Shown in pieces: positions 3,573 to 59,100 of a stretch of 64,000 nt of DNA (the stretch's first letter is position 1; every line of letters begins with the position of its first letter). The stretch is from assembly GCA_026710545.1 (NCBI GenBank), contig JAPOQU010000055.1, positions 41,312-105,311 of the forward strand, written 5' to 3'. This DNA is from Gammaproteobacteria bacterium. GTDB taxonomy: Bacteria; Pseudomonadota; Gammaproteobacteria; Eutrophobiales; Eutrophobiaceae. The notes beneath the pieces are model-generated. The model was not told the DNA's origin. It saw only the letters and a program-made list of their open reading frames with translations, and searched no databases. Made by a program: the position numbers and the translations under genes.

Positions 3573-3609
3573 ATATCTGCGATAATCTGCGTCATCTGCG
3601 GATGAATCA
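3573..3609 (+). repeat. heptad-repeat element copy 1 (ATCTGCG x3): atatctgcgataatctgcgtcatctgcggatgaatca
   Basis: Nearly identical to sequences at 26114-26150, 58859-58908 (inverted) and 59063-59100. Ends 1 bp before the puuD ATG. Confidence 0.8.
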
Positions 3610-4827
3610 ATGATGGAAGCGTATATCCTTGAATGGCTGAACCTGTTGCTGCGCTGGGCGCACCTGATCGTGGGCATCGCCTGGATCGGCTCGTCCTTTT
3701 ATTTCGTCTGGCTGGATATGAACCTCAACGTCCCTCCCCGGGACCCGGAGGACGACGCGGTGGCCGGCGACCTGTGGGCGGTGCATGGCGGCGGGTTTTA
3801 CCATGCGCAGAAATACAAGGTCGCCCCGGGTGAGTTGCCTGAACCGCTGCACTGGTTCAAGTGGGAGGCCTATACCACCTGGTTGACCGGGTTTGCCTTA
3901 CTGGTGCTGATGTATTACGTCAATGCCGATGTGTACCTGGTCGATAAAAGCGTTGCCGATTTAACGGGCGGCCAGGCCATAGCAATCAGCATCGGTTTCA
4001 TCGTGGCGTCCTGGGTGGTTTACGACCTGCTGTGCAGAACCGGTCTGAGCGACGCCTGGATTGGACTGGTCGGTTTTTTATTCCTGGTTGCCGCAGTGTA
4101 CCTCCTGACGGACCTGTTCAGCGGGCGCGGCGCGTATATACAAACAGGCTCCATGCTGGGCACCATCATGGTCGCCAACGTGTTCATGGTGATCATTCCG
4201 GGCCAGCGCGAACTGGTGGAAGCCAAACTCCGTGGTGAAGACCCGGACCCGTTGCCCGGAATCAGGGGCAAGCAGCGCTCGGTGCATAACAATTACATCA
4301 CCCTGCCGGTGCTGTTTGTCATGTTGAGCCCGCACTATCCCATGACCTACGGGCATGAATACAACTGGTTGCTCCTCATCGCCATCTTCATCGCCGGGGT
4401 GCTGATCCGGCATTTCTTCAACCTCAGAAACCAGGGGAAAGCAGAGCCCCTGCTGCTGTTTATCGCACTTGTTATTATCATCCTGGCTGCGTTCATGGCT
4501 GCGCCGAAATCCAGGGCAATCCCTGACCGGGATGTGGCGCCGCGTGCCGAGCAACCCGTTGAACCCGTTTCATTTGCGCAAGTCAGACAGGTAATCGTCC
4601 AGCGCTGCAATAATTGCCATTCGATTGAACCGAACCATCCCACCGCGCCGGTCGCTCCCAACGCCGTGATGTTCGACACCCCGGAACAAATCGCACAATG
4701 GGCACAACGCATTCACGACAGGACCGTCACCACCAGGACCATGCCGCTGGCGAACCTGACGCAGATGACCGATGAAGAACGCCTGCTGGTGGCTCGTTGG
4801 TATAAAACCGGCGCCGAAATAGAATAG
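3610..4827 (+). CDS. puuD: urate hydroxylase PuuD (membrane cytochrome c urate oxidase)
   Basis: 405-aa polytopic membrane protein with a C-terminal CNNCH heme c motif (VIVQRCNNCHSIEP). Located downstream of xdhBC. Confidence 0.75.
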   Translation: MMEAYILEWLNLLLRWAHLIVGIAWIGSSFYFVWLDMNLNVPPRDPEDDAVAGDLWAVHGGGFYHAQKYKVAPGELPEPLHWFKWEAYTTWLTGFALLVLMYYVNADVYLVDKSVADLTGGQAIAISIGFIVASWVVYDLLCRTGLSDAWIGLVGFLFLVAAVYLLTDLFSGRGAYIQTGSMLGTIMVANVFMVIIPGQRELVEAKLRGEDPDPLPGIRGKQRSVHNNYITLPVLFVMLSPHYPMTYGHEYNWLLLIAIFIAGVLIRHFFNLRNQGKAEPLLLFIALVIIILAAFMAAPKSRAIPDRDVAPRAEQPVEPVSFAQVRQVIVQRCNNCHSIEPNHPTAPVAPNAVMFDTPEQIAQWAQRIHDRTVTTRTMPLANLTQMTDEERLLVARWYKTGAEIE

Positions 4828-4876
4828 AAGCAAAGCCGTTACAATCATCGCTTCACCACCGAGTTGATGCTTATGA

Positions 4877-4945
4877 TTACCCAGCCTGGCGTTCGCAGGA
4901 CTCCCGGCGGGAGGACCCGGACAGGTAGGTCAGGCGTTTGTAGCG
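4877..4945 (-). pseudogene. remnant 3' end of IMPDH-family gene (duplicated target-site fragment)
   Basis: Minus-strand reading gives ...KRLTYLSGSSRRESCERQAG*, which parallels the C-terminus ...KYLVPLSESSRRESYER* of the intact gene at 6294-7760. Contains direct repeat copy A. Confidence 0.5.
4889..4925. repeat. direct repeat copy A (gcgttcgcaggactcccggcgggaggacccggacagg) flanking the Fic islet
   Basis: 33/37 identity with 6297-6334; the four differences are all C/T transitions. Confidence 0.8.
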
Positions 4946-4960
4946 GCCAATATATTGGCC
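4945..4960. promoter_or_regulatory. perfect 16-bp palindrome GGCCAATATATTGGCC upstream of the Fic gene
   Basis: Seen directly. A related half-site TGGCCAAAA(A)T recurs at 4955 and 5043 in the AT-rich leader of fic. Confidence 0.35.
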
Positions 4961-5067
4961 AAAAATTTGTAATATTCTTGATTTATTCTATATTATAAGT
5001 TATAAAACAGACAGTTAGTTGAGTTTTAATCGGCCAACAAAGTGGCCAAAATATGCGTTGACCATGA

Positions 5068-6279
5068 ATGGTTACAACAAGTCATAATTTCACACCCTTT
5101 ATTCCTGACGATGTGGCATTAAACCGGTCTGACTTGCCGGATTTAGTGATATCAATGGTGGGCGCTGATGCGCAACTGGCTGGACATTTGACGGAAGTGA
5201 CAAAAGCAACGATTCGTCAATATATGGAAGTTATAAATTCATATTATTCGAACCTGATTGAAGGTAATCATACGCAACCGTACGAAATCCGCGCCGCACA
5301 AAGAGGTAAGTATCACGATGATCCGATCAAAAGAGATTTACAGAAGGAGTCCGTTGCGCATATACACGTTCAGAAGTGGATCAAGCAACAAGTCCTAGAC
5401 CAGAATACGATATATTCGAGCGATTTTCTAAAGGCCCTGCACAGGGAATTTTATACACAACTCCCTGAACGCATGTGGGAAATCAAGGATGATGAAGGAA
5501 ACACAAAGGGAAAGATCATACCGGGAGAATGGCGTACGGATACTGTCAAGGTTGGCCTGCACGTCCCCCCGTCTGCAGACAATCTGGAATCACTGATGCA
5601 ACAGTTTTGCGAGATATACCATCCCCGAAGGTACTCCGGAGAGAGAAAATATATCGCTCTTATGTGTGCGCATCACAGGTTTGTCTGGGTTCACCCGTTC
5701 CTTGACGGAAATGGAAGAGTCGCCAGGTTATTTACGGACGCTGCGCTCTCCAGTCTCGGATTGAACAGTGTAGGCGTATGGTATATCAGCCGAGGCGTAG
5801 CCAGGGCAGCAAATGGTTATAAGGGGTTACTGGCGCGCGCCGATTTCCCCCGTCAAGGTATGCATGATGGTCGCGGTTTGTTAAGTCAGGAAAACCTGGT
5901 GGATTTTTGTCGATTCATGCTTGCTGCCGCGATTGACCAGATAACGTACATGACCAGGTTGCTTGACCTGGGACAGATACAAAAAAGGATTTCCAGATAC
6001 ATACAAGCGCGAAATGACAACCGGGTCCCGGCAATCAGCGCTGAAATCAAGGAAATAGCATCACTGGTCCTGTACCAGGCGTTTATACACGGGGAATTGG
6101 AACGGCAAATGGCGTATGAACTGTGCGGCATGTCTGAGCGAAGCGCCCGCAGGTTGCTTGCGCAATTAAAGGAAGAAGGCCTGTTGACTGAAACATCATC
6201 ACGGTCACCGCTCAAGTGGTCAATCCCTGAACATGCGGAACCCTGGTACTTCCCTGAGTTAGTGCCAGGCCAGGTGTAG
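5068..6279 (+). CDS. Fic/DOC family protein (probable AMPylating toxin/effector)
   Basis: 403-aa ORF with canonical Fic motif HPFLDGNGRVARLF (HxFx(D/E)GNGRxxR). Gene and leader are AT-rich relative to the flanks. Confidence 0.85.
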   Translation: MVTTSHNFTPFIPDDVALNRSDLPDLVISMVGADAQLAGHLTEVTKATIRQYMEVINSYYSNLIEGNHTQPYEIRAAQRGKYHDDPIKRDLQKESVAHIHVQKWIKQQVLDQNTIYSSDFLKALHREFYTQLPERMWEIKDDEGNTKGKIIPGEWRTDTVKVGLHVPPSADNLESLMQQFCEIYHPRRYSGERKYIALMCAHHRFVWVHPFLDGNGRVARLFTDAALSSLGLNSVGVWYISRGVARAANGYKGLLARADFPRQGMHDGRGLLSQENLVDFCRFMLAAAIDQITYMTRLLDLGQIQKRISRYIQARNDNRVPAISAEIKEIASLVLYQAFIHGELERQMAYELCGMSERSARRLLAQLKEEGLLTETSSRSPLKWSIPEHAEPWYFPELVPGQV

Positions 6280-6293
6280 CTGACATTCTGTTT

Positions 6294-7760: not shown

Positions 7761-8177
7761 GAAGAACTTAGAAGATTAGACAGTGCTGGAGTGTCAGCTT
7801 GTTGATGATATGATACAGTTAACCGTGGCCAATCTATCAATTCTCACAGCTTTGATCAACGTCCGCATTCTAATTTTATCTTTGGTATTAGGAAACTTTG
7901 TAGTGTCTAAATACGTAAGCTTCATGCGAAATGATACATGCTTGATGATAGTCATGTCATCACTTAACGATTTATCAGTATTTGCTGCGTATTTATTATT
8001 AGTCAAACGTGTAATGACGCGCACACAATCAGGTAAATTATCGGAACGATACATTTGGGTGCTGGAGCAGAAAAAATGTGGATTTACTACTCGTCATCAA
8101 TTTGCTGCTCACCTTGCAGTAACAAAAAAAGTTATCCCAATCGAAATTTCATAGATGCCGAGAAGCAAATTATTTCT

Positions 8178-9674
8178 ATGAATGTTTTAGTTACTTTCAC
8201 AGGGTTCCATGATCCATACAGCCTAGGGTTAGTTGGGGAGGAGCAACAGGCTGGCCCGATCGTTTCCTTGGTAAGTGCAAAATCATTCGACCATGTAATA
8301 TTGATTTCTACGCTGAATACGAAGGAAAACACGACAGCGACGGAATCTGTACTCAAAGAGTTGAATCCTGAAGTGGGTATCTTAATCATCGAAGCTGGTT
8401 TGAGCGACCCTACGGATTATGCAGAAATATTAAATTTACTTCGCACCAAACTTTTGCCAAAATTAAATTTATTTGAAACACAGATAAACCTCTTTGTTGC
8501 TGTTGCGTCTGGTACACCACAAATGCACGCAGCATGGTTACTCTTGGTATCAAGCGGCGAAATACCTGCTCGAATTTTGCATATCAGACCAGCTCGATTT
8601 GTAACCACGGATAAACCTCTCGTAAGTGAAATCGACCTTTCATCGAAAGAGTTTCCTGAGGTTCGGAGTATTAGCTTGTCGAGACTGGAGTCTCCCGACA
8701 CGGCACTAGATGTCAACAAACTCATCCAATCGTTAGGAATTGTGGGTGACCACCCTGAACTCTCGAAAGCGCTTGATATATCAGCTACGCTCGCCTCCTC
8801 GAGTGTGCCAATTCTATTACTTGGAGAGACCGGAACTGGCAAAGAGTTACTGGCCAGATTCATCCACTTGGCCAGTGGCCGACCTAAGGATTGCTTCGTA
8901 GCAATCAACTGCGCAGCAATTCCTAGAGACTTGGTTGAGAGCATACTATTTGGTCACTGTAAAGGCGCCTTCACGGGAGCAGTATCCGACCAGAAGGGCA
9001 AATTTGCACAAGCAGATGGTGGCACGTTGTTTCTGGATGAACTTGGGGAACTACCGTTAGATACACAAGCGAAGTTGCTACGTGTTTTACAAGAAGGGCA
9101 GATTGAACCTGTCGGCACTGGTGAACCTCATAACGTAGATGTACGATTGATTGGTGCAACAAATGTCGACCTGCCTCGATCCATAAAGCAGGGTAACTTT
9201 CGTGAGGATCTCTATTACCGCTTGAATGTTGGCGAGATCCGCTTGCCACCGCTCAGGGAACGCCGTAGCGATATTCCGAAAATCGCACTCACATTGCTAG
9301 ATAAGGTAAATACAAGTCTGAAAGCGCCGAAACGACTGACCACAGGCGCGCTACAGCGATTACAGGCGCATGATTGGCCTGGAAACATTCGAGATCTGTC
9401 GAACACAATTGAGCGTACCGCACGACTAACACGCTCTGCGGTCTTAGATACAGACGATCTCATATTTGGCGAACCAGTAATCCATGCGGAGCCTTGGTCA
9501 ACATTACCAGAGCCAGCCGAGGGTTTTTCATTGGAGAATTTTCTATCTGATGCGCGAAAGCAGATTGTGATGCGGGCGCTGAAGATTAGCGGTGGTAATC
9601 AGAGTAAGGCAGCGCTCCTTCTTGGATTGACCCCCCAAGCCGTACACAAATATGTACAGAAGAATAGAACATGA
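8178..9674 (+). CDS. RtcR-like sigma54-dependent transcriptional activator (N-terminal CARF domain + AAA+ sigma54-interaction domain + C-terminal HTH)
   Basis: Start chosen at MNVLVTFTGF (ATG 8178); the longest ORF runs from 8055. Central domain has Walker A GETGTGKELLARFIH, the GAFTGA sigma54-contact motif and ESILFGH. C-terminal Fis-type HTH (QSKAALLLGLTPQAVHKYV). The N-terminal ~230 aa aligns with my recollection of the E. coli RtcR CARF domain (VLVTFTGFHDPY ~ VAFGFVGTVLDY; ASGTPQMHAAWLLLVSSGEIPARILHIRP ~ TTGTHVAQICWFLLAEARYLPARLIQSSP). Confidence 0.8.
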   Translation: MNVLVTFTGFHDPYSLGLVGEEQQAGPIVSLVSAKSFDHVILISTLNTKENTTATESVLKELNPEVGILIIEAGLSDPTDYAEILNLLRTKLLPKLNLFETQINLFVAVASGTPQMHAAWLLLVSSGEIPARILHIRPARFVTTDKPLVSEIDLSSKEFPEVRSISLSRLESPDTALDVNKLIQSLGIVGDHPELSKALDISATLASSSVPILLLGETGTGKELLARFIHLASGRPKDCFVAINCAAIPRDLVESILFGHCKGAFTGAVSDQKGKFAQADGGTLFLDELGELPLDTQAKLLRVLQEGQIEPVGTGEPHNVDVRLIGATNVDLPRSIKQGNFREDLYYRLNVGEIRLPPLRERRSDIPKIALTLLDKVNTSLKAPKRLTTGALQRLQAHDWPGNIRDLSNTIERTARLTRSAVLDTDDLIFGEPVIHAEPWSTLPEPAEGFSLENFLSDARKQIVMRALKISGGNQSKAALLLGLTPQAVHKYVQKNRT

Positions 9675-9685
9675 TTTTAACCAAG

Positions 9686-9702
9686 GTTTAAATAATTTAA
9701 AC
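9686..9702. promoter_or_regulatory. perfect palindrome GTTTAAATAATTTAAAC (7-3-7), 12 bp after the regulator stop
   Basis: Seen directly. AT-only, so not an intrinsic terminator. Candidate UAS/IHF-type site ~90 bp upstream of the sigma54 promoter. Confidence 0.35.
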
Positions 9703-9789
9703 TTCCATTGAAAATGGGTGATATCCAAAAATAAGCTTTGTTTAGATAACTACTTGAAAATAAATGAAATAAATATTTGTTGCGAAATG

Positions 9790-9805
9790 TGGCATAGCAT
9801 TTGCT
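9790..9805 (+). promoter_or_regulatory. sigma54 (RpoN) -24/-12 promoter TGGCATAGCATTTGCT
   Basis: GG (9791-92) and GC (9803-04) have exactly the consensus spacing of TGGCAC-N5-TTGCW, with one mismatch. Located 40 bp upstream of the ATG at 9845, with a GAGGAG Shine-Dalgarno in between, and immediately downstream of a sigma54 activator gene. Confidence 0.65.
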
Positions 9806-9844
9806 TTATCAGGGTATGACATCTTAGCCCAGAGGAGAAAAGCG

Positions 9845-10129
9845 ATGACACAGTTTAGAGTTTCAAAAATAATTGACGGGGATACATTCGAAGTGGCAGA
9901 GGGCTGGGAGTGGCATGGCAAAACCGGCTCAAGGGTGCGGCCTACCGGATATAACGCCCCGGAGTTACATACCGCTGCCGGGCAGTTGGCGAAACAAAAG
10001 CTCACAAGATTAATCCAGGGTGAGATAGTTAGTTTTGGAGAGGCTTATAGGATTGACCGTGGCCGTATTGTCTGCGTCGTGTATTATAATGGTCGTAATT
10101 TGGCGGACTATTTCAGAGAGTATCAATAA
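9845..10129 (+). CDS. thermonuclease (SNase/micrococcal nuclease) family protein, short form
   Basis: 94 aa with IDGDTFEV...RPTGYNAPE...GE.V.F...D.RGR.V..VY.NG.N, paralleling the SNase IDGDT / DxPE / YGR motifs. The Ca-binding Asp equivalent to SNase D40 appears replaced by Asn (YNAPE). First gene after the sigma54 promoter. Confidence 0.55.
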   Translation: MTQFRVSKIIDGDTFEVAEGWEWHGKTGSRVRPTGYNAPELHTAAGQLAKQKLTRLIQGEIVSFGEAYRIDRGRIVCVVYYNGRNLADYFREYQ

Positions 10130-10143
10130 CTCTCGCGAGGGAT

Positions 10144-12423
10144 ATGACGAAAGACACCACCAAAGAAACCGATGCTAGGATCGCCATTGATGACTGGCTA
10201 CGTCAGGCAGGTTGGGAGCCTTCAGATAAGTCTCAGGTCCAGACCGAGGTAAAGGCCAGTGGTGGTTTCGGTGGTATAGCTGATCCTGGGAGCGCTAGCG
10301 AACCTGGCGCTCTACATACATCTGATGGGGATGTTTTGCTTAGCGGCCGTGCTGACTACGTTTTGCTCGACCAGCGCGGGCAGCCCCTTGCGGTGGTCGA
10401 GGCAAAAAGGAAGGCCATCCATCCCTATGTAGCCAAACAACAAGCGCTCCCCTATGCCAAACAACTTGGTGCGCCGTTCATCTTTCTGACCAACGGTGAA
10501 CTGATCTACTTCTGGGATTATCAGAACGATGATGCCCGCATCGTCAACTCATTCTTCTCCCGTCGTGACATGGAGCGACTTGTGCATATGCGTAGTGAAC
10601 GCATGCCGCTCGCGACGATTGATATCCCTGACTACTTTACCCGCCAAGGTGAAACTCGCGAATTACGCCCATATCAGCGGGATGCTATGCGGGCTATGGA
10701 TCGCGCATTGGAACTTGGAAAGCGCCGTTTTCTGATCGAGTTGCCCACTGGTACGGGCAAGACCGACCTCATTTGTCAGTACATTCAACGGCTGATGCAG
10801 GCAGGACATGCGGAACGCGTCCTGTTTCTGGTTGACCGGGAACAGCTTGCTAAACAGGCTCTTGAGGCAATCACCGATCTGCTTGGTCATTACAGTCACT
10901 ATTGGCTCAAGCCCGGCATAGTACGCACCGAGCAGCAGATCACTGTTTGCCTGTTGCAAACCATGATCGGCCGTTACCATGAATACACTAGTGGTTATTT
11001 CGATATCGTCATCGCGGACGAATGCCACCGTTCCATATATGGTACCTGGCAGTCGGTATTGACCCATTTCGATGCCATTCATATCGGTTTAACTGCTACA
11101 CCGGCAGCATATATCGAGCGCAATACCTTCAGTTTCTACCAGTGCAAAGATAATACGCCAGATTTTTCTTATCCTATCCAAGACGCTTTCCAAAATGATT
11201 ATCTAGTACCCTACCGCTTCGCCGAAGGTATTACCGAGATAATCGCAGAAGGCGCGGACGTCGATGAGGAGCACTATGACCCCGCCGAGTTCGAGCGTAA
11301 GTGGACCAACGAAAAGACCAATCGTCTGATGATGGAGGAGTTTGACAAGCTGGCTTGGCAGAACTATCAAAGCCTGGCGCCAGGCCAGAAACCCGCACCG
11401 GGGAAGTCCATTGTATTTGCCATCACCAAACACCATGCCGCACGTCTGGCTCAGTATCTCAACGACTTGCATCCAGAATACAACGGACACTATGCTGAGG
11501 TGATCACCAGTGATGTGCAGAATACGGATGAACTGATCCGCAAGTTCAAGCGCGAGGATTACCCGCAAGTAGCCGTGAGTGTCGGTATGCTGGATACTGG
11601 TTTCGATTGCCGTGAGATCCTCCACTTAGTGATGTGTCGACGTGTGCGTAGTCCCATTCTCTATCAGCAGATGCGCGGGCGAGGTACGCGCACAGCACCG
11701 CATATCAGTAAGGGGAAGTTTGTGATTTACGACTTCTTTCGTAACCATCAGTACTTCAACGATAGCGATACAGATATCTTTATCGGTACGGGTACAGGCC
11801 ATGTTCCGACGATCCGTAAACCAAAGAGCATGTCCCAACGTGATCTCATTGAACTGGGGCTCGAAGATGAATGGTTGGAAGCAGTTAACTATGTCGAAGT
11901 GGGGCCCCAAGGAGAGCGCATCGACAAGCGTCAATACGTCACCGACTGGGAAAATACCGTTCGTGATGCCGTTGTGCACGATCCGATTATCAGGAAAATT
12001 CGATCGGGCAATTTGCTCAGTGATGGTGAAGAGCAGCAACTTGCTGTCCGACTCAACCAACCCGAACGCTACTTCAATGAAGAAAACCTGCGTCGTGCCT
12101 ATCGCAATCCGGGCGGCTCGCTGGTGGACTTCATTCGTGCAGCGCTGGGCCAGCAGAAGATCAAGAGCCGCGAAGAAACAGTGGACGAGAACTTCCGAGC
12201 CTGGCTGGTTACCCGCAACCTCAGTGCCGAGCAGGCACAGTACCTGGCTATGCTGAAAAACCGTGGTATTGCACGTGGCAAGCTAGCGCTGGACGATCTG
12301 TTTCAACCGCCACTCTCCATACTCAATGCCGCAAACCTCGGAATAGAATTCTTTGGCGAGCAGGGACTGAAAAAGGTCGTTGATGAAATGAACGATACAT
12401 TATTTAGCAGCGACAATAGATGA
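10144..12423 (+). CDS. hsdR: Type I restriction enzyme R subunit (HsdR), compact 759-aa form
   Basis: N-terminal restriction-endonuclease fold (VLLDQRGQPLAVVEAKRK) followed by SF2 helicase motifs: Q LRPYQRDAMRAM, I LPTGTGKT, II DECHRS, III LTATP. Immediately followed by hsdM and hsdS. Confidence 0.8.
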   Translation: MTKDTTKETDARIAIDDWLRQAGWEPSDKSQVQTEVKASGGFGGIADPGSASEPGALHTSDGDVLLSGRADYVLLDQRGQPLAVVEAKRKAIHPYVAKQQALPYAKQLGAPFIFLTNGELIYFWDYQNDDARIVNSFFSRRDMERLVHMRSERMPLATIDIPDYFTRQGETRELRPYQRDAMRAMDRALELGKRRFLIELPTGTGKTDLICQYIQRLMQAGHAERVLFLVDREQLAKQALEAITDLLGHYSHYWLKPGIVRTEQQITVCLLQTMIGRYHEYTSGYFDIVIADECHRSIYGTWQSVLTHFDAIHIGLTATPAAYIERNTFSFYQCKDNTPDFSYPIQDAFQNDYLVPYRFAEGITEIIAEGADVDEEHYDPAEFERKWTNEKTNRLMMEEFDKLAWQNYQSLAPGQKPAPGKSIVFAITKHHAARLAQYLNDLHPEYNGHYAEVITSDVQNTDELIRKFKREDYPQVAVSVGMLDTGFDCREILHLVMCRRVRSPILYQQMRGRGTRTAPHISKGKFVIYDFFRNHQYFNDSDTDIFIGTGTGHVPTIRKPKSMSQRDLIELGLEDEWLEAVNYVEVGPQGERIDKRQYVTDWENTVRDAVVHDPIIRKIRSGNLLSDGEEQQLAVRLNQPERYFNEENLRRAYRNPGGSLVDFIRAALGQQKIKSREETVDENFRAWLVTRNLSAEQAQYLAMLKNRGIARGKLALDDLFQPPLSILNAANLGIEFFGEQGLKKVVDEMNDTLFSSDNR

Positions 12424-12442
12424 CAGAAGGTGGTAACAACGC

Positions 12443-14095
12443 ATGAACCGCAGTTTACGAAGAAAGCTGGATCACATCACTGATGTCCTCTGGGCAGGTG
12501 GTGTTACTAATCCGGTTACCTATATTGAGCAGATCTCTTATTTGATCTTTCTGAAGTTGTTGGATGAGGAGGAACAGGACCGTGAACTGCGCGTTCGCCT
12601 CAGAGCCGCTAGTGGCAACGCTAAACTGTTGTTCCCCCAGCAGGCCGAACGTTATCGCTGGTCCAAGTGGCGTTTCATGAGCGGACCAGAGCTTCGCGAC
12701 TTCATCCGGGACGAAGTATTCCCTTACTTGGCATCGATAGCCAAAGATGAGCCTGAAGTGGCCGAGTATTTCCGCGATGCCGTGTTGGAGATTGTAGACC
12801 CTAATGTGCTGAAGCAGGTGGTGGACGAGATCGATACTTTCGAATTTCGCAAGCTTGGGCCAGACGTCAAAGGCGATATCTTCGAATATTTATTAACCCA
12901 TCTTGGTCAGTCGTCCCTGAATGGACAGTTTCGCACACCGCGCCAGATCCGTTCTTTCATGGTGGAAATGGTCGATCCAGAACTGGGTGATTCCGTTTTC
13001 GATCCAGCATGTGGAACAGCCGGTTTTCTTATAGACACAGTAGACTATCTGCTTGCTAAGTACAGCGAGACAGTACAAGAATATCCTATCTACGGCGAAG
13101 ACTGGTTGGAGAAGCGTGGACAGACTCTCGCTGAAGCTAGAAAAGAAATACCAAATCTCCAAACCTATCGCAAGGGTACAGGTGAAAAAATTCCAGACTG
13201 GAGCATGCTCGAAGCCTCGATTTTTGGCGTGGATGTTTCTCGTCAGATGATGCGCATAAGCATGATGAATCTCATACTACACAGCGTACGTCGAGCAAGG
13301 CTTAAACGCGGCAATTCATTGTCGGACCACGGAGGACTTACGGAGGAGGATTTATCGCGTCGCTACAAAGTGATACTGTCCAATCCGCCCTTCGCTGGAC
13401 AGATCCCGAAGGATTCCATCCGCTCAGACCTCTACACTAGTTCCAGGAAAAGTGAATTGCTCTTTCTGGGCTTAATGATGGAACATCTCGCCCCAGGTGG
13501 CCGTTGCGCTGTTGTGGTGCCGGAAGGTTTGCTGTTCGGCTCTACCAGCGCGCATAAGAATCTCCGAAAGAAACTTGTTGAGGATTTCGCTCTGCTCGCC
13601 GTGGTTTCTCTGCCAGCGGGTGTGTTTAGACCTTATGCGGGAGTAAAGACCAGCGTGCTGGTTTTCTGCAAACCCCAAAACGGAGGCAAGATAGAGAAAG
13701 CAGAGAAGATTTGGTTCTATGAGGTTTGCAACGACGGCTATGACCCCGACAAGATCTCTGATGGTGGTCGTGTGGAAACCCCCAACCTCAACGAGATTCC
13801 TGACCTACTCGCCAAATGGCAGGAGTACAAAGCATCTAAGTTCGATAATCCGCCTGGTGTGGAAGCCAATAGAATTCTGGAACCGGGGAATGAAATACCG
13901 CGATGTTGGTGGGCGGACGTGAAGACATTGGCGATTAATGATTTTCATTTGGCAGCGGGGCGTTACAAGCCGCAGGTCGCAGAAGCGGTACCAGAAGAAG
14001 ATCCGCTAGAATTAATAAAAGATACTTTAATAGTCGAAAAGGAGCTAACCCGAGGGCTTGAAAGATTGTTGCAAGAATTGGAAGCATCCCAGTGA
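12443..14095 (+). CDS. hsdM: Type I restriction-modification N6-adenine DNA methyltransferase subunit (HsdM)
   Basis: 550 aa; SAM motif I FDPACGTAGFL and catalytic motif IV NPPFAG; HsdM N-terminal domain. Confidence 0.9.
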   Translation: MNRSLRRKLDHITDVLWAGGVTNPVTYIEQISYLIFLKLLDEEEQDRELRVRLRAASGNAKLLFPQQAERYRWSKWRFMSGPELRDFIRDEVFPYLASIAKDEPEVAEYFRDAVLEIVDPNVLKQVVDEIDTFEFRKLGPDVKGDIFEYLLTHLGQSSLNGQFRTPRQIRSFMVEMVDPELGDSVFDPACGTAGFLIDTVDYLLAKYSETVQEYPIYGEDWLEKRGQTLAEARKEIPNLQTYRKGTGEKIPDWSMLEASIFGVDVSRQMMRISMMNLILHSVRRARLKRGNSLSDHGGLTEEDLSRRYKVILSNPPFAGQIPKDSIRSDLYTSSRKSELLFLGLMMEHLAPGGRCAVVVPEGLLFGSTSAHKNLRKKLVEDFALLAVVSLPAGVFRPYAGVKTSVLVFCKPQNGGKIEKAEKIWFYEVCNDGYDPDKISDGGRVETPNLNEIPDLLAKWQEYKASKFDNPPGVEANRILEPGNEIPRCWWADVKTLAINDFHLAAGRYKPQVAEAVPEEDPLELIKDTLIVEKELTRGLERLLQELEASQ

Positions 14096-15348
14096 AGTGG
14101 ACTACTACAACAATACAGCGAGTTTCGCAACAAACACAAGTGTGTAATCCTCGGGAACGTCAAGAAAGTCTGTTTAAGTATATAGATATATCATCAATTG
14201 ACCGCGATAAAAAAATTATTTCGCAGGCACCTGAAATAAAGGGAGCCAAGGCCCCAAGTCGCGCACGGAAAGAAGTAAATGCGGGTGACATCTTAGTATC
14301 CACTGTCAGGCCAAACTTGAATGCTGTGGCAATCGTACCGCCTGAATTGGACAGCCAAATCGCTTCTACTGGTTTTTCAGTCCTGCGTCCGGAAAGTGAT
14401 CTTATAAATGGACGTTATCTGTTTTATTTTGTCCAGACGTCTGGTTTTATTGATGCTTTGACGTCGAAAGTAAGAGGAGCCCATTACCCTGCAGTTTCAG
14501 ATACTGATGTAAAGAATGTTGAGCTTCCATTGCCTACGATAGCCGAACAACATCGCATCGTCGAAATTCTCGATCAGGCCCATGCTCTGCGTAAGAGTCG
14601 CACAAACGCTGACACTAAAGCTGTCCGCATCCTACCTGCATTGTTCTATCAGATGTTTGGCGATCCGTTATTGAATACCAAGGACTTTGAAAGAGTTTGC
14701 CTTGGCGACGCTGGTATTGCTGAGATCAATCCTCGGGCACCATCCCGAGACTTACCTAATGATCTGGAAGTTAGCTTCGTTCCAATGGCTGATGTAAATG
14801 AGGATTGGGGGCAGATTACTGGTTGCCAAATTAAGGAGCTAGGTGAAGTTAAGAAAGGATTTACTTCTTTTTTGGAGAACGATGTTCTATTTGCCAAAAT
14901 CACACCCTGTATGGAAAATGGAAAGGCTGCCATAGCTAGAGGACTCGGTAACGGATTGGGTTATGGTTCCACAGAATTTCATGTATTGCGAGCAGGAGAC
15001 CTGGTTACCCCAGAATGGATTTATGGGTTGACTAGACTGGACATTTTTAGAAATGTCGCAAAAGGAAATTTTATCGGTTCGGTGGGCCAACAGCGAGTAC
15101 CCGCTGACTTTTTGCGCAGTTTTCGCGTTCCTCTCCCTCCAAAAAAATTAATAGAAAAATTTTCAATTGTTGTGCGCGAGCTTCTTCAAGAGAACGATTA
15201 TAGGCGAGAGGCAGAAAAAAGAATTTCACAGTTAGTTCAAATAACAATGCATCATGCGTTTTCAGGAAAGCTGACTGAAGGCTGGCGAAGAGCCCACCTG
15301 AAGGAGGAGTTCCAAGAAATAGAGCACCAAGCGAGAGCAGGTACTTAA
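14092..15348 (+). CDS. hsdS: Type I restriction-modification specificity subunit (HsdS)
   Basis: 418 aa with two target-recognition domains separated by conserved central and distal repeats. Start overlaps the hsdM stop. Confidence 0.85.
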   Translation: MKWTTTTIQRVSQQTQVCNPRERQESLFKYIDISSIDRDKKIISQAPEIKGAKAPSRARKEVNAGDILVSTVRPNLNAVAIVPPELDSQIASTGFSVLRPESDLINGRYLFYFVQTSGFIDALTSKVRGAHYPAVSDTDVKNVELPLPTIAEQHRIVEILDQAHALRKSRTNADTKAVRILPALFYQMFGDPLLNTKDFERVCLGDAGIAEINPRAPSRDLPNDLEVSFVPMADVNEDWGQITGCQIKELGEVKKGFTSFLENDVLFAKITPCMENGKAAIARGLGNGLGYGSTEFHVLRAGDLVTPEWIYGLTRLDIFRNVAKGNFIGSVGQQRVPADFLRSFRVPLPPKKLIEKFSIVVRELLQENDYRREAEKRISQLVQITMHHAFSGKLTEGWRRAHLKEEFQEIEHQARAGT

Positions 15349-15363
15349 GGAATTTTTGAGGAT

Positions 15364-17034
15364 TTGATAATGATAAAAACGCTCTTCACCGGCAACTTCA
15401 AAGCCTTCGCCGAGACCCAACGAATTCCAATCAGACCGATTACAATGATCTTTGGTCCAAATAGCGCTGGTAAATCGAGCTTCATCCATAGCTTAGCGCT
15501 AGCGAGCGAAGCCGAGCGTACCGGACGGTTGGATGTATTCAAAACTGAGGTCGGCGGTAGTGCCATCGACCTGGGTGGATTCCGGCAGTACATCCATCGT
15601 GGCGAGGCAAAGCGTCGAATGGAATGGGGTGCAGAGTTAGATGTGTCATCACTTCAGGGTCGGCTAGAGGAACTTCTGGCTCCAGTCAATACGCTCAAAG
15701 TGGTTATGTTCACAGGTGTGGCACTGGACAACGAAGAACGACCGTTAGTAAGCGCCGAACCGGCTGTTACAGGATACGAGTTATTCGGAGATGACCAACT
15801 CCTATTGCGCATGAGTCGTCGGCCGGATGGGAAACTGCGGCTGGACCGGCTGAACCACGAGCACTTGGTCTTTCGTGAGGTTCTTAAGGCTATCGTCACT
15901 ACTGCAACCACAACGAACACTGTTACAAAGGAGGATTTCGAGGGGATTGACGACGTCATCAACGTTATGGTGCCTCGACTGAGTATAGGGGTGACTAAAC
16001 TGTTCCCCGAAGGGCTGACTGATCGGCGTGTCGATAATGAGGAACAGGAGCAAGCCACATTGTTTCCGGTTAGCAAGGGCAATCGGAGTGAGGACCTTGC
16101 TAATGCGATCAATTTCTTTCTGCCAAAGACACTTGATGAACTCATCATGGGGACTAGCCAGATTCTGGCGCAGGAACTCAAGAAACTGCAATACCTTGGT
16201 CCTCTCCGTTCTTTTCCGCCCCGGCACTTGGCCTTTTCGGAACACGAGGACGCAAACTGGTACGCAGGTGGCGGTTACGCTTGGGATATTGTACGCAGGG
16301 ACGACACGGTTCGCTCTGCGGTCAATGAATGGCTGGGATCGGAGGTATTGAAGACACCGTATGAACTTGTAGTCCGTCAGTTGGTGGGTATCAGCGATTT
16401 AGATCCTGTATTGGAGGAAGGCCTTGAGACGATCATTGATGACGGGGTGGAAATTGAGCATGAGCCGGAGTCCGAGTATACGGGTGGCGGAGCCTATCCG
16501 ATACTCCGGGATTCGGAGGCAGAGGCACGTCGTCTTCAAGAGTTGATCCAGACGTCCGATTTGAAAAAGCTCAAGGAGCTGGTCCTTATTGACAGACGAT
16601 CCAATACGGTGGTGTCACACCGTGATGTGGGGATCGGTATTACCCAGGTACTGCCTGTGCTTGTGTTGGCCTATGCATCTACAGACAAATTGATCGCCAT
16701 GGAGCAGCCGGAAATTCACCTACACCCTGCGCTACAGGCAGAGTTAGGTGACGTATTCATTAATTCGGCGTTGGGAGGGCGCGGCAATCGATTCATACTG
16801 GAAACTCACAGTGAGCACCTCCTTTTACGTATTATGCGTCGTATGCGAGAAACAGATGAACAAATGTTACCGGAAGGCACTAAGCCGATACATCCTGAAG
16901 ATGTGATGGTTCTTTACGTCGAGCCAGATGGTGGTCGTAGTATTGTGCGCGAGATGCCATTGAATGCCCGGGGCGAACTGGTAAAAGCGTGGCCAGGCGG
17001 TTTCTTCGAAGAAGGTCTACGGGAGATATTCTAA
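15364..17034 (+). CDS. ABC-type (AAA_21/AAA_15-like) ATPase, first gene of a two-gene module
   Basis: 556 aa. Walker A FGPNSAGKSS at residues ~29-38; Walker B/D-loop LIAMEQPEIHLHP; H-loop ETHSEHLL near the C-terminus, with a long inserted region between. This is the architecture of ATPases from OLD/Septu/AbiL/PARIS-type defence modules. Starts 16 bp after the hsdS stop. Confidence 0.8.
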   Translation: MIMIKTLFTGNFKAFAETQRIPIRPITMIFGPNSAGKSSFIHSLALASEAERTGRLDVFKTEVGGSAIDLGGFRQYIHRGEAKRRMEWGAELDVSSLQGRLEELLAPVNTLKVVMFTGVALDNEERPLVSAEPAVTGYELFGDDQLLLRMSRRPDGKLRLDRLNHEHLVFREVLKAIVTTATTTNTVTKEDFEGIDDVINVMVPRLSIGVTKLFPEGLTDRRVDNEEQEQATLFPVSKGNRSEDLANAINFFLPKTLDELIMGTSQILAQELKKLQYLGPLRSFPPRHLAFSEHEDANWYAGGGYAWDIVRRDDTVRSAVNEWLGSEVLKTPYELVVRQLVGISDLDPVLEEGLETIIDDGVEIEHEPESEYTGGGAYPILRDSEAEARRLQELIQTSDLKKLKELVLIDRRSNTVVSHRDVGIGITQVLPVLVLAYASTDKLIAMEQPEIHLHPALQAELGDVFINSALGGRGNRFILETHSEHLLLRIMRRMRETDEQMLPEGTKPIHPEDVMVLYVEPDGGRSIVREMPLNARGELVKAWPGGFFEEGLREIF

Positions 17035-17036
17035 GG

Positions 17037-17969
17037 ATGTTGCTCGCTGAGTATGCGATAACTCCAGACGTATTTGATGCGACGTCCTATGTCAACGAGG
17101 ATCTATGTGCTGCACGATTGGAGCTCATTCGCGAGGTAATGTTAAATGAGGGCGTGATACGCGATCTTAGAAATGGAAGCTGGTCTAACTTGTTCAGAAG
17201 TGACCATCGCTCCTGGCATCGTAGAGCTAAGGAGCTTGCCAAAAAGCTAGCCTCACAAAATAGATTAAGACCCTTTGTGCCACAGCTGGCAGTGAAGCCA
17301 TCCGTAGATTCAGAGTGGTGTGATGAGGCGTTGGTTACTCATGGGATCGAACCCTTGACAGGTATCATTGTAACGGACACGATTTCAGACGGCTACATAG
17401 GGAATCCCCTTGTTTCAAGGGTCGATAGATTGAACAGCGCTCCATGGTGGAGCGGAAGAAAACCATCCATGCGCCTCAATAGAACATTTACAGATTATCT
17501 AAACGCATTGTCATTGGTACTGAGACATGCCAACTCCATTATGTTTATTGACCCGCATATAGATCCGACTCAGCCCAAGTACAATGATTTTATTGAATTG
17601 ATAAAGAGAGCGGGCAATCGCAACCCATTACCATTGATTGAGATTCATCGAGTTTGTTATCGTGGCTCGGGACAACATAGGAAGATATTAGATCTTCAAC
17701 AATTGGAGGCTAGTTTCAGAAATGAACTTACCCAACCACTGCAGAGAGTGGGCTTGACTGCTGAAATTTTTGTCTGGGATGATTTTCATGACAGATATGT
17801 CTTAAGTAATCTAGTAGGAATTGCGCTCCTTAATAGTCTCGATACAACAATTATGCAAAATTCAACAACGACCTGGACTCGTTTAGGCCACAAAGACAGG
17901 GATGATGTGCAAAGAGAATTTGACCCAGCAAGTAATCAGCATAAATTAAAGAAGAAGTTCGCAATTTGA
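17037..17969 (+). CDS. hypothetical protein (311 aa), partner of the ABC ATPase
   Basis: ATG 2 bp after the ATPase stop, so translationally coupled. The longest ORF is 16989-17969. Acidic clusters (IMFIDPHIDP, VWDDFHDRY) could belong to a metal-dependent nuclease (TOPRIM/DUF4435-like?), but I cannot assign a domain from sequence. AT-rich. Confidence 0.6.
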   Translation: MLLAEYAITPDVFDATSYVNEDLCAARLELIREVMLNEGVIRDLRNGSWSNLFRSDHRSWHRRAKELAKKLASQNRLRPFVPQLAVKPSVDSEWCDEALVTHGIEPLTGIIVTDTISDGYIGNPLVSRVDRLNSAPWWSGRKPSMRLNRTFTDYLNALSLVLRHANSIMFIDPHIDPTQPKYNDFIELIKRAGNRNPLPLIEIHRVCYRGSGQHRKILDLQQLEASFRNELTQPLQRVGLTAEIFVWDDFHDRYVLSNLVGIALLNSLDTTIMQNSTTTWTRLGHKDRDDVQREFDPASNQHKLKKKFAI

Positions 17970-26020: not shown

Positions 26021-26113
26021 GCCAGAGAGGACACGTAGATCACAGAGTTAAGGATTAAAGATTTTGTGCAGCCTGGTTAACAGGCTTCGTTTTACCTTGT
26101 CGTTTTAACAAGA

Positions 26114-26150
26114 ATAATCTGCGATAATCTGCGTCATCTGTGGATAAATA
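26114..26150 (+). repeat. heptad-repeat element copy 2: ataatctgcgataatctgcgtcatctgtggataaata
   Basis: Same element as at 3573. Ends ~20 bp before the trpS start. Its last heptad variant, TGTGGATAA, resembles a DnaA box. Confidence 0.8.
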
Positions 26151-30848: not shown

Positions 30849-30934
30849 GCCGATGTGGTGGAATTGGTAGACACGCTGTCTTGAGGGGGCAGTGCCCAAA
30901 AGGCGTGCCGGTTCGACTCCGGCCATCGGCACCA
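30849..30934 (+). tRNA. tRNA-Leu (anticodon GAG), 86 nt with long variable arm and encoded CCA
   Basis: Acceptor stem GCCGATG/CATCGGC, D-arm GTGGAATTGGTAGAC, anticodon stem CTGTC/GGCAG with loop TTGAGGG, T-arm GGTTCGACTCC, 3' ACCA. Confidence 0.85.
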
Positions 30935-31096: not shown

Positions 31097-31915
31097 ATGG
31101 TGTCACTAGCAGGGATTGGAAAATCCTATCGTAATAAACTCAGTATGGTTTTAGAGCATAATTTTGCCGTAATTACTGTGGATCGGGTTGCAGAGACACT
31201 GAATGTGCATCATCAAGAAGCTGGCAGGCTACTGTCTCGTTGGTGTAAAAACGGTTGGTTAAAAAGACTGACTCGAGGTGCATACGTGCCAGTGCCATTA
31301 GAGGCGACTAGCAGTGAAGTAGTTGCAGAGGAACCCTTATTGATCGTCGATGCGTTGTATGCGCCTGGTTATATAGCGGGTTATAGCGCTATAAAACATT
31401 GGGATTTTTCTGAACAAATTTTTGAAACAACGACCTACTTTACTACGCGTAAGATTAAAAATAGATATCCATCCCACGGTGGTGTGAAGTACCAATTAAA
31501 AACTATTAAAGCTTATAAATTATTCGGTTTAAAACCACTTTGGTTTGGATCCAAAAAAGTCATGATTAGCGATCCAACAAAAACCCTGGTTGATATTCTG
31601 GATGATCCCAAGATTGTAGGCGGGATATCCATCGTCAGTGATGTGCTGGCAGAATACATGGAGTCAACGCATTATGAACCAGATGCAATAATCACATATG
31701 CAAGGAGAATGAATAATAAAACTATTTTCAAACGATTAGGTTTCTTACTTGAAACCAGATTTTCGCTTGACAAAGAATTATCAGAAGAATTACTGACAAA
31801 CGTCTCTGAAAGCTACTCCCATCTTGATCCCACTATCCAGTCACATCACAGTATTGCAAAATGGCGGTTAAAAATATCAGCGTCATGGAAAGACGAATAT
31901 GATAGAAAAAAATGA
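31097..31915 (+). CDS. AbiEi-family antitoxin/transcriptional regulator (type IV TA)
   Basis: Winged-helix N-terminus with the RWCKNGWLKRLTRGAYVPVP signature of AbiEi (NTD wHTH) plus the C-terminal AbiEi domain. Followed by an AbiEii toxin gene with a 17-bp overlap. Confidence 0.7.
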   Translation: MVSLAGIGKSYRNKLSMVLEHNFAVITVDRVAETLNVHHQEAGRLLSRWCKNGWLKRLTRGAYVPVPLEATSSEVVAEEPLLIVDALYAPGYIAGYSAIKHWDFSEQIFETTTYFTTRKIKNRYPSHGGVKYQLKTIKAYKLFGLKPLWFGSKKVMISDPTKTLVDILDDPKIVGGISIVSDVLAEYMESTHYEPDAIITYARRMNNKTIFKRLGFLLETRFSLDKELSEELLTNVSESYSHLDPTIQSHHSIAKWRLKISASWKDEYDRKK

Positions 31916-58235: not shown

Positions 58236-58266
58236 TTTTTCGCACAAACAATGCGAGATTAGAACA

Positions 58267-58548
58267 ATGACCAAATCTGAACTGATTGAAGCTTTAAGCA
58301 GGCAGCAGCCTCAGTTTACATCTAAAGATATAGAATCGGCAGTAAAAACAATTCTCGAGTCCATGGCCCAGAGCCTGGCGACCGGCGAGAGAATTGAAAT
58401 TCGGGGGTTCGGCAGTTTCTCGCTGCACTACAGGCCGCCGCGCATCGGTCGTAACCCCAAATCCGGTGAATCTGTTTCCTTGCCGGCCAAGTTCGTTCCA
58501 TATTTCAAACCGGGAAAGCAAATGCGAGAACGGGTGGACCAGGATTAG
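58267..58548 (+). CDS. ihfB: integration host factor subunit beta
   Basis: Start at [10 protein letters not shown] (ATG 58267); the longest ORF runs from 58228. DNA-binding arm [22 protein letters not shown]. Confidence 0.9.
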
Positions 58549-58585
58549 TTGTGACCACACAGAGCCAAGGTCTGCCTGAACCCGT

Positions 58586-58870
58586 TTGATGTCCATCGTT
58601 AGAATTGCGCTGATCCTGCTTGTTGTCGTGGCCGGATTGGCATTCCACGTTCGTAACGACCAACTGGTCGTGGTTGATTTCTATCTCGGAAACTACGAGA
58701 TACCGTTATCACTGGCCCTTGCCATAGCCCTGCTCGGCGGCGCAGTCCTGGGAGTTTTATCCGGTCTGCCGTCATGGTTGAAACTGAAACGCGCCAAGGC
58801 AAAACTGGGCAGGCAACTCAAAGCACACCAACCGGATTCTCAGGCTTCTGAAGAACAATCCGCAGATTAA
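58586..58870 (+). CDS. LapA-family (DUF1049/YciS-like) inner-membrane protein
   Basis: 94 aa; two TM helices and a basic C-terminal tail LKLKRAKAKLGRQLK. Position after ihfB. Confidence 0.6.
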   Translation: MMSIVRIALILLVVVAGLAFHVRNDQLVVVDFYLGNYEIPLSLALAIALLGGAVLGVLSGLPSWLKLKRAKAKLGRQLKAHQPDSQASEEQSAD

Positions 58871-58908
58871 TGATTCATCCGCAGATGACGCAGATTAACG
58901 CAGATATA
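58859..58908 (-). repeat. heptad-repeat element copy 3 (inverted orientation, 4 heptads; first heptad overlaps the lapA-like stop codon)
   Basis: Reverse complement is ttatatctgcgttaatctgcgtcatctgcggatgaatcattaatctgcgga, near-identical to copy 1. Confidence 0.8.
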
Positions 58909-59062
58909 AAATAAAAATAACTTGCAGTGTGGCAATGTGCCGGTATAGCGGCTAAATCATATAATCTCGAGACTACAACCCTTAGGACACCGGAGAGATT
59001 TCTCCATTTGTTTGATGATTACCCGTTTGTAGTAACAAAAATCCTTGATCAAAGAATTTTCA

Positions 59063-59100
59063 TATAATCTGCGTTAATCTGCGTCATCTGCGGATAAAAT
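59063..59100 (+). repeat. heptad-repeat element copy 4: atataatctgcgttaatctgcgtcatctgcggataaaat, 12 bp upstream of mfd ATG
   Basis: Contains a perfect TATAAT hexamer at its 5' end. Inverted relative to copy 3, 160 bp away. Confidence 0.8.

Follow-up and report, generated by a model that had tools for sequence, protein, structure and literature searches.

The ATCTGCG repeats that lie beside puuD, trpS and mfd in the stretch of DNA analysed here (64,000 nt, hereafter the window) are probably the arms (terminal inverted repeats) of small palindromic elements that lie between genes and form one family, and the window holds three gene-less members, at the xdhC|puuD, tsaC|trpS and lapA|mfd junctions. 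In a full-length member, a gene of approximately 370 nt for a GxxExxY protein (PF13366/TIGR04256), a minimal PD-(D/E)XK nuclease, forms the spacer between two divergent arms, and the N- and C-terminal tails of the protein are read from the arms themselves. Gene-less members, with a spacer of 0-200 nt of unrelated AT-rich DNA, are much commoner. We found no published description of the element.

A 29-nt core (ATCTGCGWTAATCTGCGTCATCTGYGGAT) matches exactly at four places in the window (3575-3603, 26117-26145 and 59067-59095 on the forward strand, and 58877-58905 on the reverse), for which 100 shuffles of the window gave an expectation of 0; there are 22 ATCTGCG heptads where 9.8 would be expected. 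The repeat reported in the initial annotation is therefore real, and its description there as a small dispersed element is supported over chance, but the count of four copies has to be raised to five arms in the 64 kb, the fifth being the two-heptad arm at 3482-3500 (-), ATCCGCAGATGACGCAGAT. Each of the five arms is a direct array of ATCTG(C/T)G heptads, two to four in number and 9-10 nt apart, with GGAT at the end (Table 1). Within the window copies the heptads start 10 and then 9 nt apart, one helical turn as had been noted, and we agree that direct heptads phased in this way can reasonably be taken as the mark of a protein binding in oligomeric form.

Table 1. Arms, spacers and associated features of the three elements in the window.
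Feature	Position	Strand	Description
Pair 1 left arm	3482..3500	-	Two heptads, ATCCGCAGAT-GA-CGCAGAT
Pair 1 spacer, AT-rich	3501..3574		Holds the xdhC stop codon at 3525-3527
Pair 1 right arm	3575..3609	+	Three heptads, then GGATGAATCA; ends at the first ATG of puuD
Candidate decayed left arm, trpS copy	26039..26062		ATCACAGAGTTAAGGATTAAAGAT, 18 nt past the tsaC stop codon
Right arm at trpS	26117..26150	+	Three heptads, the third ATCTGTG; no intact partner
Pair 2 left arm	58858..58905	-	Outer heptad 58858-58867 plus three heptads 58877-58905
14-codon mini-ORF	58870..58914	+	MIHPQMTQINADIK and stop; reads through the pair 2 left arm
Pair 2 spacer, 161 nt	58906..59066		Between the inverted arms
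Pair 2 right arm	59067..59109	+	Three heptads, GGAT, 14 more nt of inverted repeat

Two of the three loci are inverted pairs, in which a left arm after a stop codon is followed by an AT-rich spacer and then by a right arm before the next start codon. Pair 1 (arms of 22 nt in an element of ~128 nt) folds into a long hairpin of -39.5 kcal/mol (z -6.4); pair 2 (an element of ~252 nt, the 43-nt arms of which are 86% complementary) reaches -88.4 kcal/mol (z -8.2). By itself the 19-mer ATCTGCGTCATCTGYGGAT forms only a 7-bp stem that includes two G-U pairs. At trpS a clear partner arm is absent; the sequence after tsaC that contains CACAGAG (the heptad of a CTCTGTG variant found elsewhere) is a weak, statistically unsupported candidate for a decayed one. 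In an Rfam search of the window only tRNA-Leu scored above its gathering score, and the best match near pair 2 was to a plant miRNA model (27.8 bits, the gathering score being 85), an effect of the long hairpin.

Each left arm adjoins or overlaps the stop codon of the gene before it. That of pair 1 is translated as the final part of the xdhC ORF (ending in KSADDADDYIKQTQI), and the end of lapA, its last three codons (SAD) and TAA stop (58868-58870), comes from that of pair 2. The ATG of the mini-ORF, at 58870, overlaps this stop (TAATG), and its product, as we read the sequence, is similar to MNPQITQMNAD, the N-terminus that the arm encodes in GxxExxY proteins. On the other side, the first ATG of puuD is at 3610, with the real start at 3613 according to homologues; the TTG start of trpS is at 26170, 19 nt beyond the arm; and the ATG of mfd is at 59112, 2 nt after the pair 2 arm. 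The gaps to these three starts were correctly given at the outset. Each junction is taken up by its element, so that the start codon that follows comes directly after the right arm and the stop codon that precedes adjoins the left arm or is encoded by it, and nearness to start codons is most simply a consequence of the elements filling very short gene junctions. For annotation this matters, as the elements lengthen ORFs (the tail of xdhC, the stop of lapA), give rise to spurious starts (the puuD ATG at 3610) and can be mistaken for operators.

The exact 19-mer was found in at least 119 genome stretches, with more than 15 phylum labels among the matches listed, where chance would give about 9 matches in 596 Gb (our own estimate, assuming equal base frequencies), and also in 35 viral contigs; many matches come from MAGs, and some phylum labels, archaeal ones especially, may be binning errors. 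Only the heptads and GGAT are conserved across the matches, the flanks being variable. Near-invariant DNA of 19-29 nt common to distant phyla and phages is rare; it must either have spread horizontally very widely or be recognised by a conserved protein. Neighbouring arms are divergent in 149 cases, against 38, 33 and 33 for the three other arrangements, and the divergent spacers are bimodal in length (106 below 200 nt, 3 of 200-350 nt and 37 of 350-600 nt), with a GxxExxY gene present in 36 of the 37 long ones. An inverted partner lies on the inner side of half of 159 arms and on the outer side of 6%. Among divergent pairs at genome loci sampled by motif, 53 of 59 are gene-less, and approximately 40% of gene-containing pairs show non-canonical arm orientations. 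The gene-less spacers have no sequence in common with one another (97 pairs) or with the GxxExxY gene, so they are neither ordinary MITE copies nor recognisable deletion derivatives.

The gene found between arms belongs to the GxxExxY family (PF13366, E 1e-40; TIGR04256, E 1e-43), which is very large (at least 8000 matches in our search) and whose function is listed as unknown in the one survey that we found (PMC3424549). The association also appears from the side of the gene. Just downstream of 80 GxxExxY genes, sampled by N-terminal peptide patterns and so independently of the DNA motif, forward heptads were present in 54 (three heptads in 34) and reverse heptads in 18; just upstream, the reverse orientation prevailed (47 of the 80, against 20 forward). 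When ORFs beside the arms were clustered, for the 119 genome loci listed and the window, PF13366 was the sole recurrent neighbour; no regulator, recombinase or HUH Y1 transposase (RAYT) gene recurred there. In the protein the residues D, E and K are invariant and arranged as D..ExK, and its AlphaFold2 model (pLDDT 84) matches the folds of Cas4, lambda exonuclease, RecE and Hjc, so that residues and predicted fold are compatible with an active nuclease. GxxExxY proteins gave no tblastn match to the window, its spacers hold no coding remnant of the gene, and none was present at any examined locus of this gammaproteobacterial lineage; an enzyme acting here in trans is thus hypothetical.

The arms persist at orthologous junctions in relatives. 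The right arm at mfd is identical to that of L241 at 32 of 32 positions, where third codon positions are 56% identical, and the puuD heptads match those of L267 at 21 of 21 positions, with third positions 65% identical. At this same level of synonymous identity (56-65%) the spacers at xdhC|puuD and lapA|mfd differ completely from those of relatives: the pair 2 spacer is unlike them in both sequence and length, and the pair 1 spacer, which is the same in L236, is shortened to 4 nt in L238 and L266 and replaced by an unrelated 57 nt in L267. Relatives also show further differences, with four heptads at the pair 1 left-arm position in L236, a CTCTGTG-type palindrome nested within ATCTGTG-type outer arms in L239, and no element at all at xdhC|puuD in L237, where XdhC has a different C-terminus and the junction is an unrelated 288 nt with no readable element boundary or duplication. 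Neither a clean pair of filled and empty alleles nor a target-site duplication was found among the loci compared, and no near-identical GxxExxY gene was found at two different loci; mobility is therefore presumed rather than observed.

We infer that the element is mobile and recognised by the GxxExxY nuclease. This enzyme, alone or as an oligomer, may recognise either the phased heptads themselves or a hairpin or cruciform formed by two arms, and could bring about the copying or renewal of arms through repair resembling homing or transposition, in the way that RAYT maintains REPINs. Transcripts crossing a pair would fold into a stem of at least about 29 bp, which could punctuate operon mRNAs. 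Our tentative proposal, which we hold at rather less than even confidence, is that GxxExxY genes and their arms form an undescribed, cross-phylum class of selfish element, a PD-(D/E)XK counterpart of the REPIN-RAYT system, in which the nuclease reads the heptads or cruciform and renews or spreads the arms, and gene-less palindromes have turned into long-lived punctuation at operon junctions, supplying stops, tails and 5' leaders to core genes.

The resemblance to REPIN-RAYT, with a different enzyme, is an analogy of several parts. Like REPs and REPINs, these are short extragenic repeats, mostly inverted doublets with a short spacer, present many times in a genome; the repeats flank the enzyme gene, too, in inverted orientation, as they do RAYT genes; and in both systems the repeat sequence follows the enzyme lineage and copies persist at orthologous sites. 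In contrast to RAYT, an HUH Y1 transposase, the putative enzyme here is a PD-(D/E)XK nuclease of ~125 aa. The arm is an array of direct heptads rather than a GTAG-headed palindrome (the GTAG head is absent from the arms in the window), one arm sequence is common to many phyla and phages where REP families are species- or genus-specific, and arms here, unlike those of REPINs, are translated as protein tails.

The elements also recall MITEs (Correia of Neisseria, ERIC, RUP, Nezha) in being small, non-coding and intergenic with terminal inverted repeats; MITEs, too, can alter the ends of genes, provide promoters and give transcripts with hairpins that are RNase III-sensitive. They differ in that internal sequence is not common to copies (within the window, at orthologous sites or among the 97 pairs), no target-site duplication was identified here, the spacer varies from 0 to 200 nt, and the putative partner enzyme does not belong to the known transposases. 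Free-standing homing endonuclease genes include PD-(D/E)XK types, such as I-Ssp6803I. The GxxExxY gene is likewise a small predicted nuclease gene, patchy across phyla, at conserved gene junctions, and fresh arms around changing centres are what homing with co-conversion of flanks would be expected to produce. However, its putative site is a dispersed repeat and not a unique conserved host sequence, and filled and empty alleles of one site were not seen among our loci.

The arm conservation at orthologous sites fits a host function equally well. The elements might be palindromic RNA or DNA signals maintained by the host, like REPs or BIMEs, with the stem selected for mRNA punctuation (as an RNase III site, a 3' stabiliser or a control of the start codon) or for binding of a nucleoid protein, and with the GxxExxY gene as an occasional passenger. 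The great stability of both window pairs, the large excess of gene-less over gene-containing pairs, the retention of arms where synonymous sites have diverged and the positions of phage pairs (one after a probable capsid gene, judged from its translation only, and others between structural genes) all suit such a signal. A stem, however, needs complementarity and not one fixed sequence in phylum after phylum, and the heptads are simply identical across phyla, with no compensatory variation. No U-tract follows the stem at the window loci, the 300 nt on the inner side hold no partner heptad for 43% of arms, and the tight link to one protein family, with heptad variants that track its lineage, would go unexplained. 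We regard a purely host-maintained signal as unlikely.

Less probable still is an outward-facing promoter or 5'-UTR module, made of a -10-like box and a short leader in which GGAT would act as a weak ribosome-binding site, although such a role could hold alongside that of a nuclease-linked element. Linkers in this lineage are for the most part (A/T)TA, which creates TAATCT or GATAAT hexamers, there are weak sigma-70-like matches at two loci, clear Shine-Dalgarno sequences precede few genes here, and arms end 5-30 nt upstream of start codons in the window and related MAGs. Against this, sigma-70 scans gave 1-2 weak matches per locus where 0.3-0.9 were expected, which is chance level, and arms of the same sequence are directed into xdhC and lapA at their 3' ends. 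The -10-like hexamer originally described is no more than AT-rich inner flank, as the cross-phylum consensus at that position is T-rich and has no -10 box (TATAAT). The bias towards gene starts is modest over all phyla (a start codon within 30 nt of 31 arms, against 19 in a flipped control, with crude ORF calls).

It had further been suggested that the repeat is an operator at which an oligomeric host repressor co-regulates puuD, trpS and mfd. Direct repeats at helical-turn spacing near three start codons do invite this, but it is largely refuted and we give it very little credence: the three genes are functionally unrelated, the same arms occur at gene 3' ends and in inverted pairs around arbitrary spacers, the identical sequence is present in distant phyla and phages, the arms are linked to a nuclease gene, and no regulator gene recurs beside them at the 119 genome loci listed and in the window. 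An attC-like recombination site of a cassette system is equally far-fetched, since despite the imperfect palindrome with conserved outer arms, a centre of variable length that sometimes encloses a small gene, and a position between stop and next start, the window arms lack GTTRRRY/RYYYAAC cores, there is no integrase, no recombinase recurs nearby at the 119 genome loci listed and in the window, and the flanks are housekeeping genes in conserved order and not cassette arrays.

With a defined DNA partner (phased heptad arrays in inverted pairs), the function of PF13366 becomes directly testable on a 30-mer. Carriers of the elements include Polaromonas sp. CT11-55, Salinisphaera japonica and Sphingomonas parapaucimobilis. 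Cultured isolates repeat the arm layout with other heptads: in Sphingomonas the arms and gene lie between fabD and fabG with the heptad CTTCGCG, Bacteroides finegoldii and Bernardetia have CTCTGTG, and in Gemmatirosa a gene-less ATCCGCG pair adjoins a GxxExxY gene. Were the nuclease sequence-specific, with a lineage-specific modular heptad code (ATCTGCG, CTCTGTG, CTTCGCG, ATCCGCG), it could become a tool. A further GxxExxY gene lies inside a restriction-modification operon.

The 29-nt core ATCTGCGWTAATCTGCGTCATCTGYGGAT was found exactly at each of the four places where the initial annotation had seen the element, against zero matches expected in shuffled window sequence, and its heptads are, as had been claimed, direct repeats about one helical turn apart (start-to-start 10, then 9 nt). 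A search with the last two heptads revealed a fifth copy, so that two of the three window loci are inverted pairs, each consisting of two divergent arms (an arm being an array of 2-4 direct ATCTG(C/T)G heptads, 9-10 nt apart and ending in GGAT) around a spacer; no further tandem-heptad arrays were found elsewhere in the window. The copies occupy the junctions xdhC/puuD, tsaC/trpS and rpsA-ihfB-lapA/mfd. The left arm touches the end of the upstream gene in both pairs: the xdhC ORF runs through that of pair 1 to a stop inside the spacer, and in pair 2 the outer heptad of the left arm supplies lapA with its final three codons and its TAA stop.

Heptad arrays and other features of the window
Feature	Position	Strand or orientation	Description
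Core copy, xdhC/puuD	3575-3603	+	exact 29-nt core
Core copy, tsaC/trpS	26117-26145	+	exact 29-nt core
Core copy, lapA/mfd	58877-58905	-	exact 29-nt core
Core copy, lapA/mfd	59067-59095	+	exact 29-nt core
Fifth copy, xdhC/puuD	3482-3500	-	last two heptads
Pair 1	3482-3503 vs 3582-3603	inverted	22 nt, 95% complementary, 78 nt apart
Pair 2	58863-58905 vs 59067-59109	inverted	43 nt, 86% complementary, 161 nt apart
puuD start	3610-3615		two adjacent ATGs
lapA stop and ORF after it	58868-58914		14 codons, through left arm of pair 2
Low-GC block	8055-17969		45-51% GC vs ~57-60%
tRNA-Leu(GAG) and low-GC stretch	30849-33278		stretch 42-48% GC
AbiEii-type toxin gene	31899-33278		upstream partner ORF

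The 19-mer ATCTGCGTCATCTGYGGAT occurs in at least 119 stretches of a 596-Gb genome scan, where we estimate, assuming equal base frequencies, about 9 by chance. Among the matches listed, the MAG labels include Verrucomicrobiota, Planctomycetota, Acidobacteriota, Chloroflexota, Latescibacterota, Lentisphaerota, Nitrospirota, Bacteroidota, Cyanobacteriota, Hydrogenedentota, WOR-3, Alpha-, Beta- and Gammaproteobacteria, Desulfobacterota and others; two matches are isolates (Polaromonas and Salinisphaera) and two are archaeal MAGs, for which binning errors are possible. The 19-mer is also present in 35 viral contigs. BLASTN showed no synteny between the window and the 119 motif-bearing genome loci among the matches listed, so each is an independent context. 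The arm consensus across loci is tttN-ATCTGCG-TTC-ATCTGCG-TC-ATCTGCGGAT-aaa, with no conservation beyond the heptads in the aligned arms, and Rfam holds no relevant family for the arms at gathering scores or relaxed E-values. In GC-rich phage contigs (L134, 1490-1626 and 2267-2285; L142, 8304-9639) arms fill short gaps between structural genes, one pair lying directly 3′ of a probable major capsid gene, a call read from translation only.

When all ORFs within 1.5 kb of arms were clustered, the sole recurrent neighbour among the matches listed was a protein of ~125 aa, matching PF13366 (PDDEXK_3, E 1e-40) and TIGR04256 (‘GxxExxY protein’, E 1e-43). Wherever this gene was found near arms, it had a reversed arm on one side and a forward arm on the other, and no other recurrent cargo was found between arms. 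To remove ascertainment bias, 80 metagenomic GxxExxY genes were drawn by N-terminal peptide patterns only: in the 60 nt after the gene, 54 of the 80 had forward heptads (all three in 34) and 18 reverse ones, and in the 70 nt before it 47 had reverse and 20 forward heptads. The ORF usually begins immediately outside the left arm (MNPQITQMNAD...) and runs into the right arm, where it ends (...NLRxSAxSAD), and such arm-encoded tails are present in most of the 140-150-aa family members aligned; the fixed heptads, free linkers and 10/9-nt period are not codon-like, and the constraint thus falls on nucleic acid rather than on protein.

Across all loci, 149 pairs of neighbouring arms are divergent, versus 38, 33 and 33 for the other arrangements, and an inverted partner within 300 nt lies on the inner side of half of 159 arms and on the outer side of 6%. 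Divergent spacers fall into two size classes, with 106 below 200 nt, 37 of 350-600 nt, all but one of which contain the gene, and three between. Among the listed matches for motif-sampled genome loci, gene-less pairs make up 53 of 59 divergent pairs. The window belongs to this typical gene-less class, with 74 and 161 nt between the heptad arrays of pairs 1 and 2 and no tblastn match to GxxExxY. Gene-less spacers are AT-richer than their flanks (47% vs 59% GC, in 86 of 97 pairs), and no shared motif was found in them. The idea that they are decayed GxxExxY genes is rejected, as 73 spacers held no trace of the gene and spacers of intermediate length are lacking. In an Akkermansia MAG contig (L057, 4830-5563) a GxxExxY gene is adjoined by three arms that share identical flanks and lie ~220 and 495 nt apart; they reflect a tandem duplication or else an artefact of assembly.

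A small sample of cultured organisms, taken from annotated plasmid and chromid records, repeats this arrangement with different heptads. The genes fabD and fabG are normally adjacent in the fab cluster, and thus the GxxExxY gene between them in Sphingomonas parapaucimobilis, whose 25-nt inverted repeat is made up of CTTCGCG heptads, is an insertion. In Bacteroides finegoldii the gene is flanked by radA and a gene for a FAD-dependent protein, and three CTCTGTG heptads make up the 30-nt inverted repeat; Bernardetia has the CTCTGTG heptad, Gemmatirosa a gene-less ATCCGCG pair adjoining a GxxExxY gene, and Treponema a 16-nt inverted repeat at the gene that is not heptad-based. Three other GxxExxY records lacked a clear repeat. 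In the annotated records the gene is named ‘GxxExxY protein’ and the arms carry no annotation. Within this small sample, different lineages appear to have different heptad types, suggesting that the GxxExxY protein recognises the heptads.

Residues D70, E80 and K82 are invariant in the family alignment and form a D..ExK arrangement, and an AlphaFold2 model (pLDDT 84) matches Cas4 (SSO0001), lambda exonuclease, RecE, MGME1, Hjc and tRNA-splicing endonuclease with TM-scores of 0.33-0.51 (normalised to query); the predicted fold is a generic PD-(D/E)XK nuclease core. No close solved structure was found by PDB sequence search, and the family is absent from PADLOC and PHROGs, with no informative matches. 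In the only survey that we found (PMC3424549) the family is listed as of unknown function, with ‘multiple transfers’. No GxxExxY gene was confirmed in viral contigs; identical proteins on several contigs were always one locus from different samples, and a near-identical gene in two different contexts was not found. One GxxExxY gene, in an arrangement identical across ten samples (L256-L265), sits within an apparent type III restriction-modification operon: it overlaps the N6_N4 methyltransferase gene on one side and the RhuM gene on the other by 4 nt each, and a restriction endonuclease gene lies downstream.

The motif is thus best read as the arm of a GxxExxY-associated palindromic element, analogous to REPINs with their RAYT transposase, although the enzyme is another one and the arm is an array of heptads. 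The nuclease would recognise the heptads and would drive the mobility or renewal of the arms. Such an element fills short co-directional junctions, with its partner arm at the preceding stop codon, and this is the simplest account of the closeness of arms to start codons. A crude distance test over all phyla found a modest enrichment near starts that was noisy in GC-rich genomes. Two possible further roles are compatible with the GxxExxY-element reading. One is a host-selected function of the hairpin, consistent with the predicted folds of pair 1 (-39.5 kcal/mol, z -6.4) and pair 2 (-88.4 kcal/mol, z -8.2). The other is an outward promoter arising by exaptation, for which sigma-70 scans at the arms gave matches at chance level; in the terminator scans the sole match was the weak hairpin within the 19-mer. 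The proposal that the copies are operators for puuD, trpS and mfd is not supported. DnaA, Fur and Pho boxes, CsrA sites and 16S-rRNA complementarity were dropped as candidates, each resembling the motif only in part and leaving the inverted pairs and the gene link unexplained.

Searches by motif or family name found no published description of the heptad repeats, although unsearched literature or database comments may hold one; motif strings matched primer coincidences only, and papers mentioning GxxExxY, PDDEXK_3, PF13366 or TIGR04256 did so in passing, with no account of these repeats.

The window comes from an uncultured gammaproteobacterial MAG lineage, and its relatives record the history of these junctions. 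At xdhC/puuD, a close relative (L236, PuuD 97% identical) has the element with the window's spacer but four left-arm heptads (9858-9892) versus two in the window, which suggests slippage or unequal exchange within the arrays. L238 and L266 (PuuD 85-87%) have the element with a 4-nt spacer, and L237 (92%) lacks it. In L267 (84%) the spacer is an unrelated 57 nt, and an IS carrying a DDE_Tnp_1 transposase (162-1205) has inserted into the element, between an extra outer heptad and the complete inner pair. At lapA/mfd every relative examined has a pair, with spacers of unrelated sequence and length; L239 has a CTCTGTG-type palindrome nested within ATCTGTG-type outer arms, and L241 carries, outside its intact right arm, an additional decayed one. 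The flanking genes share only 52-69% identity at third codon positions in all comparisons except with L236 (89%), and yet window and L241 agree at 32/32 positions of the mfd right arm, and window and L267 at 21/21 positions of the puuD heptads. The arms are thus either selected or repeatedly renewed while centres turn over. Neither a filled-versus-empty allele nor a target duplication was found at the compared junctions.

Some minor features of the window deserve mention. The first puuD ATG is part of the element's outer flank (GGATGAATCAATG), and element-free homologues begin at the second (ATGGAAGCG); one database entry gives the window's PuuD as 404 aa. The stop of lapA overlaps, as TAATG, the start of a 14-codon ORF (MIHPQMTQINADIK*), which mimics the arm-encoded N-terminus of GxxExxY proteins. 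In the low-GC block lie genes for a type I restriction-modification system (HsdR, HsdM, HsdS), a sigma-54 activator and an AAA_21 ATPase. Because the flanking guaB and TonB-dependent receptor genes are adjacent in L236, the block appears to be an inserted island. The toxin-encoding stretch behind tRNA-Leu(GAG) is likely an island inserted at the tRNA. Few of the window's genes, judged at the starts of most long ORFs, show a recognisable Shine-Dalgarno sequence; in a gammaproteobacterium this is unusual.
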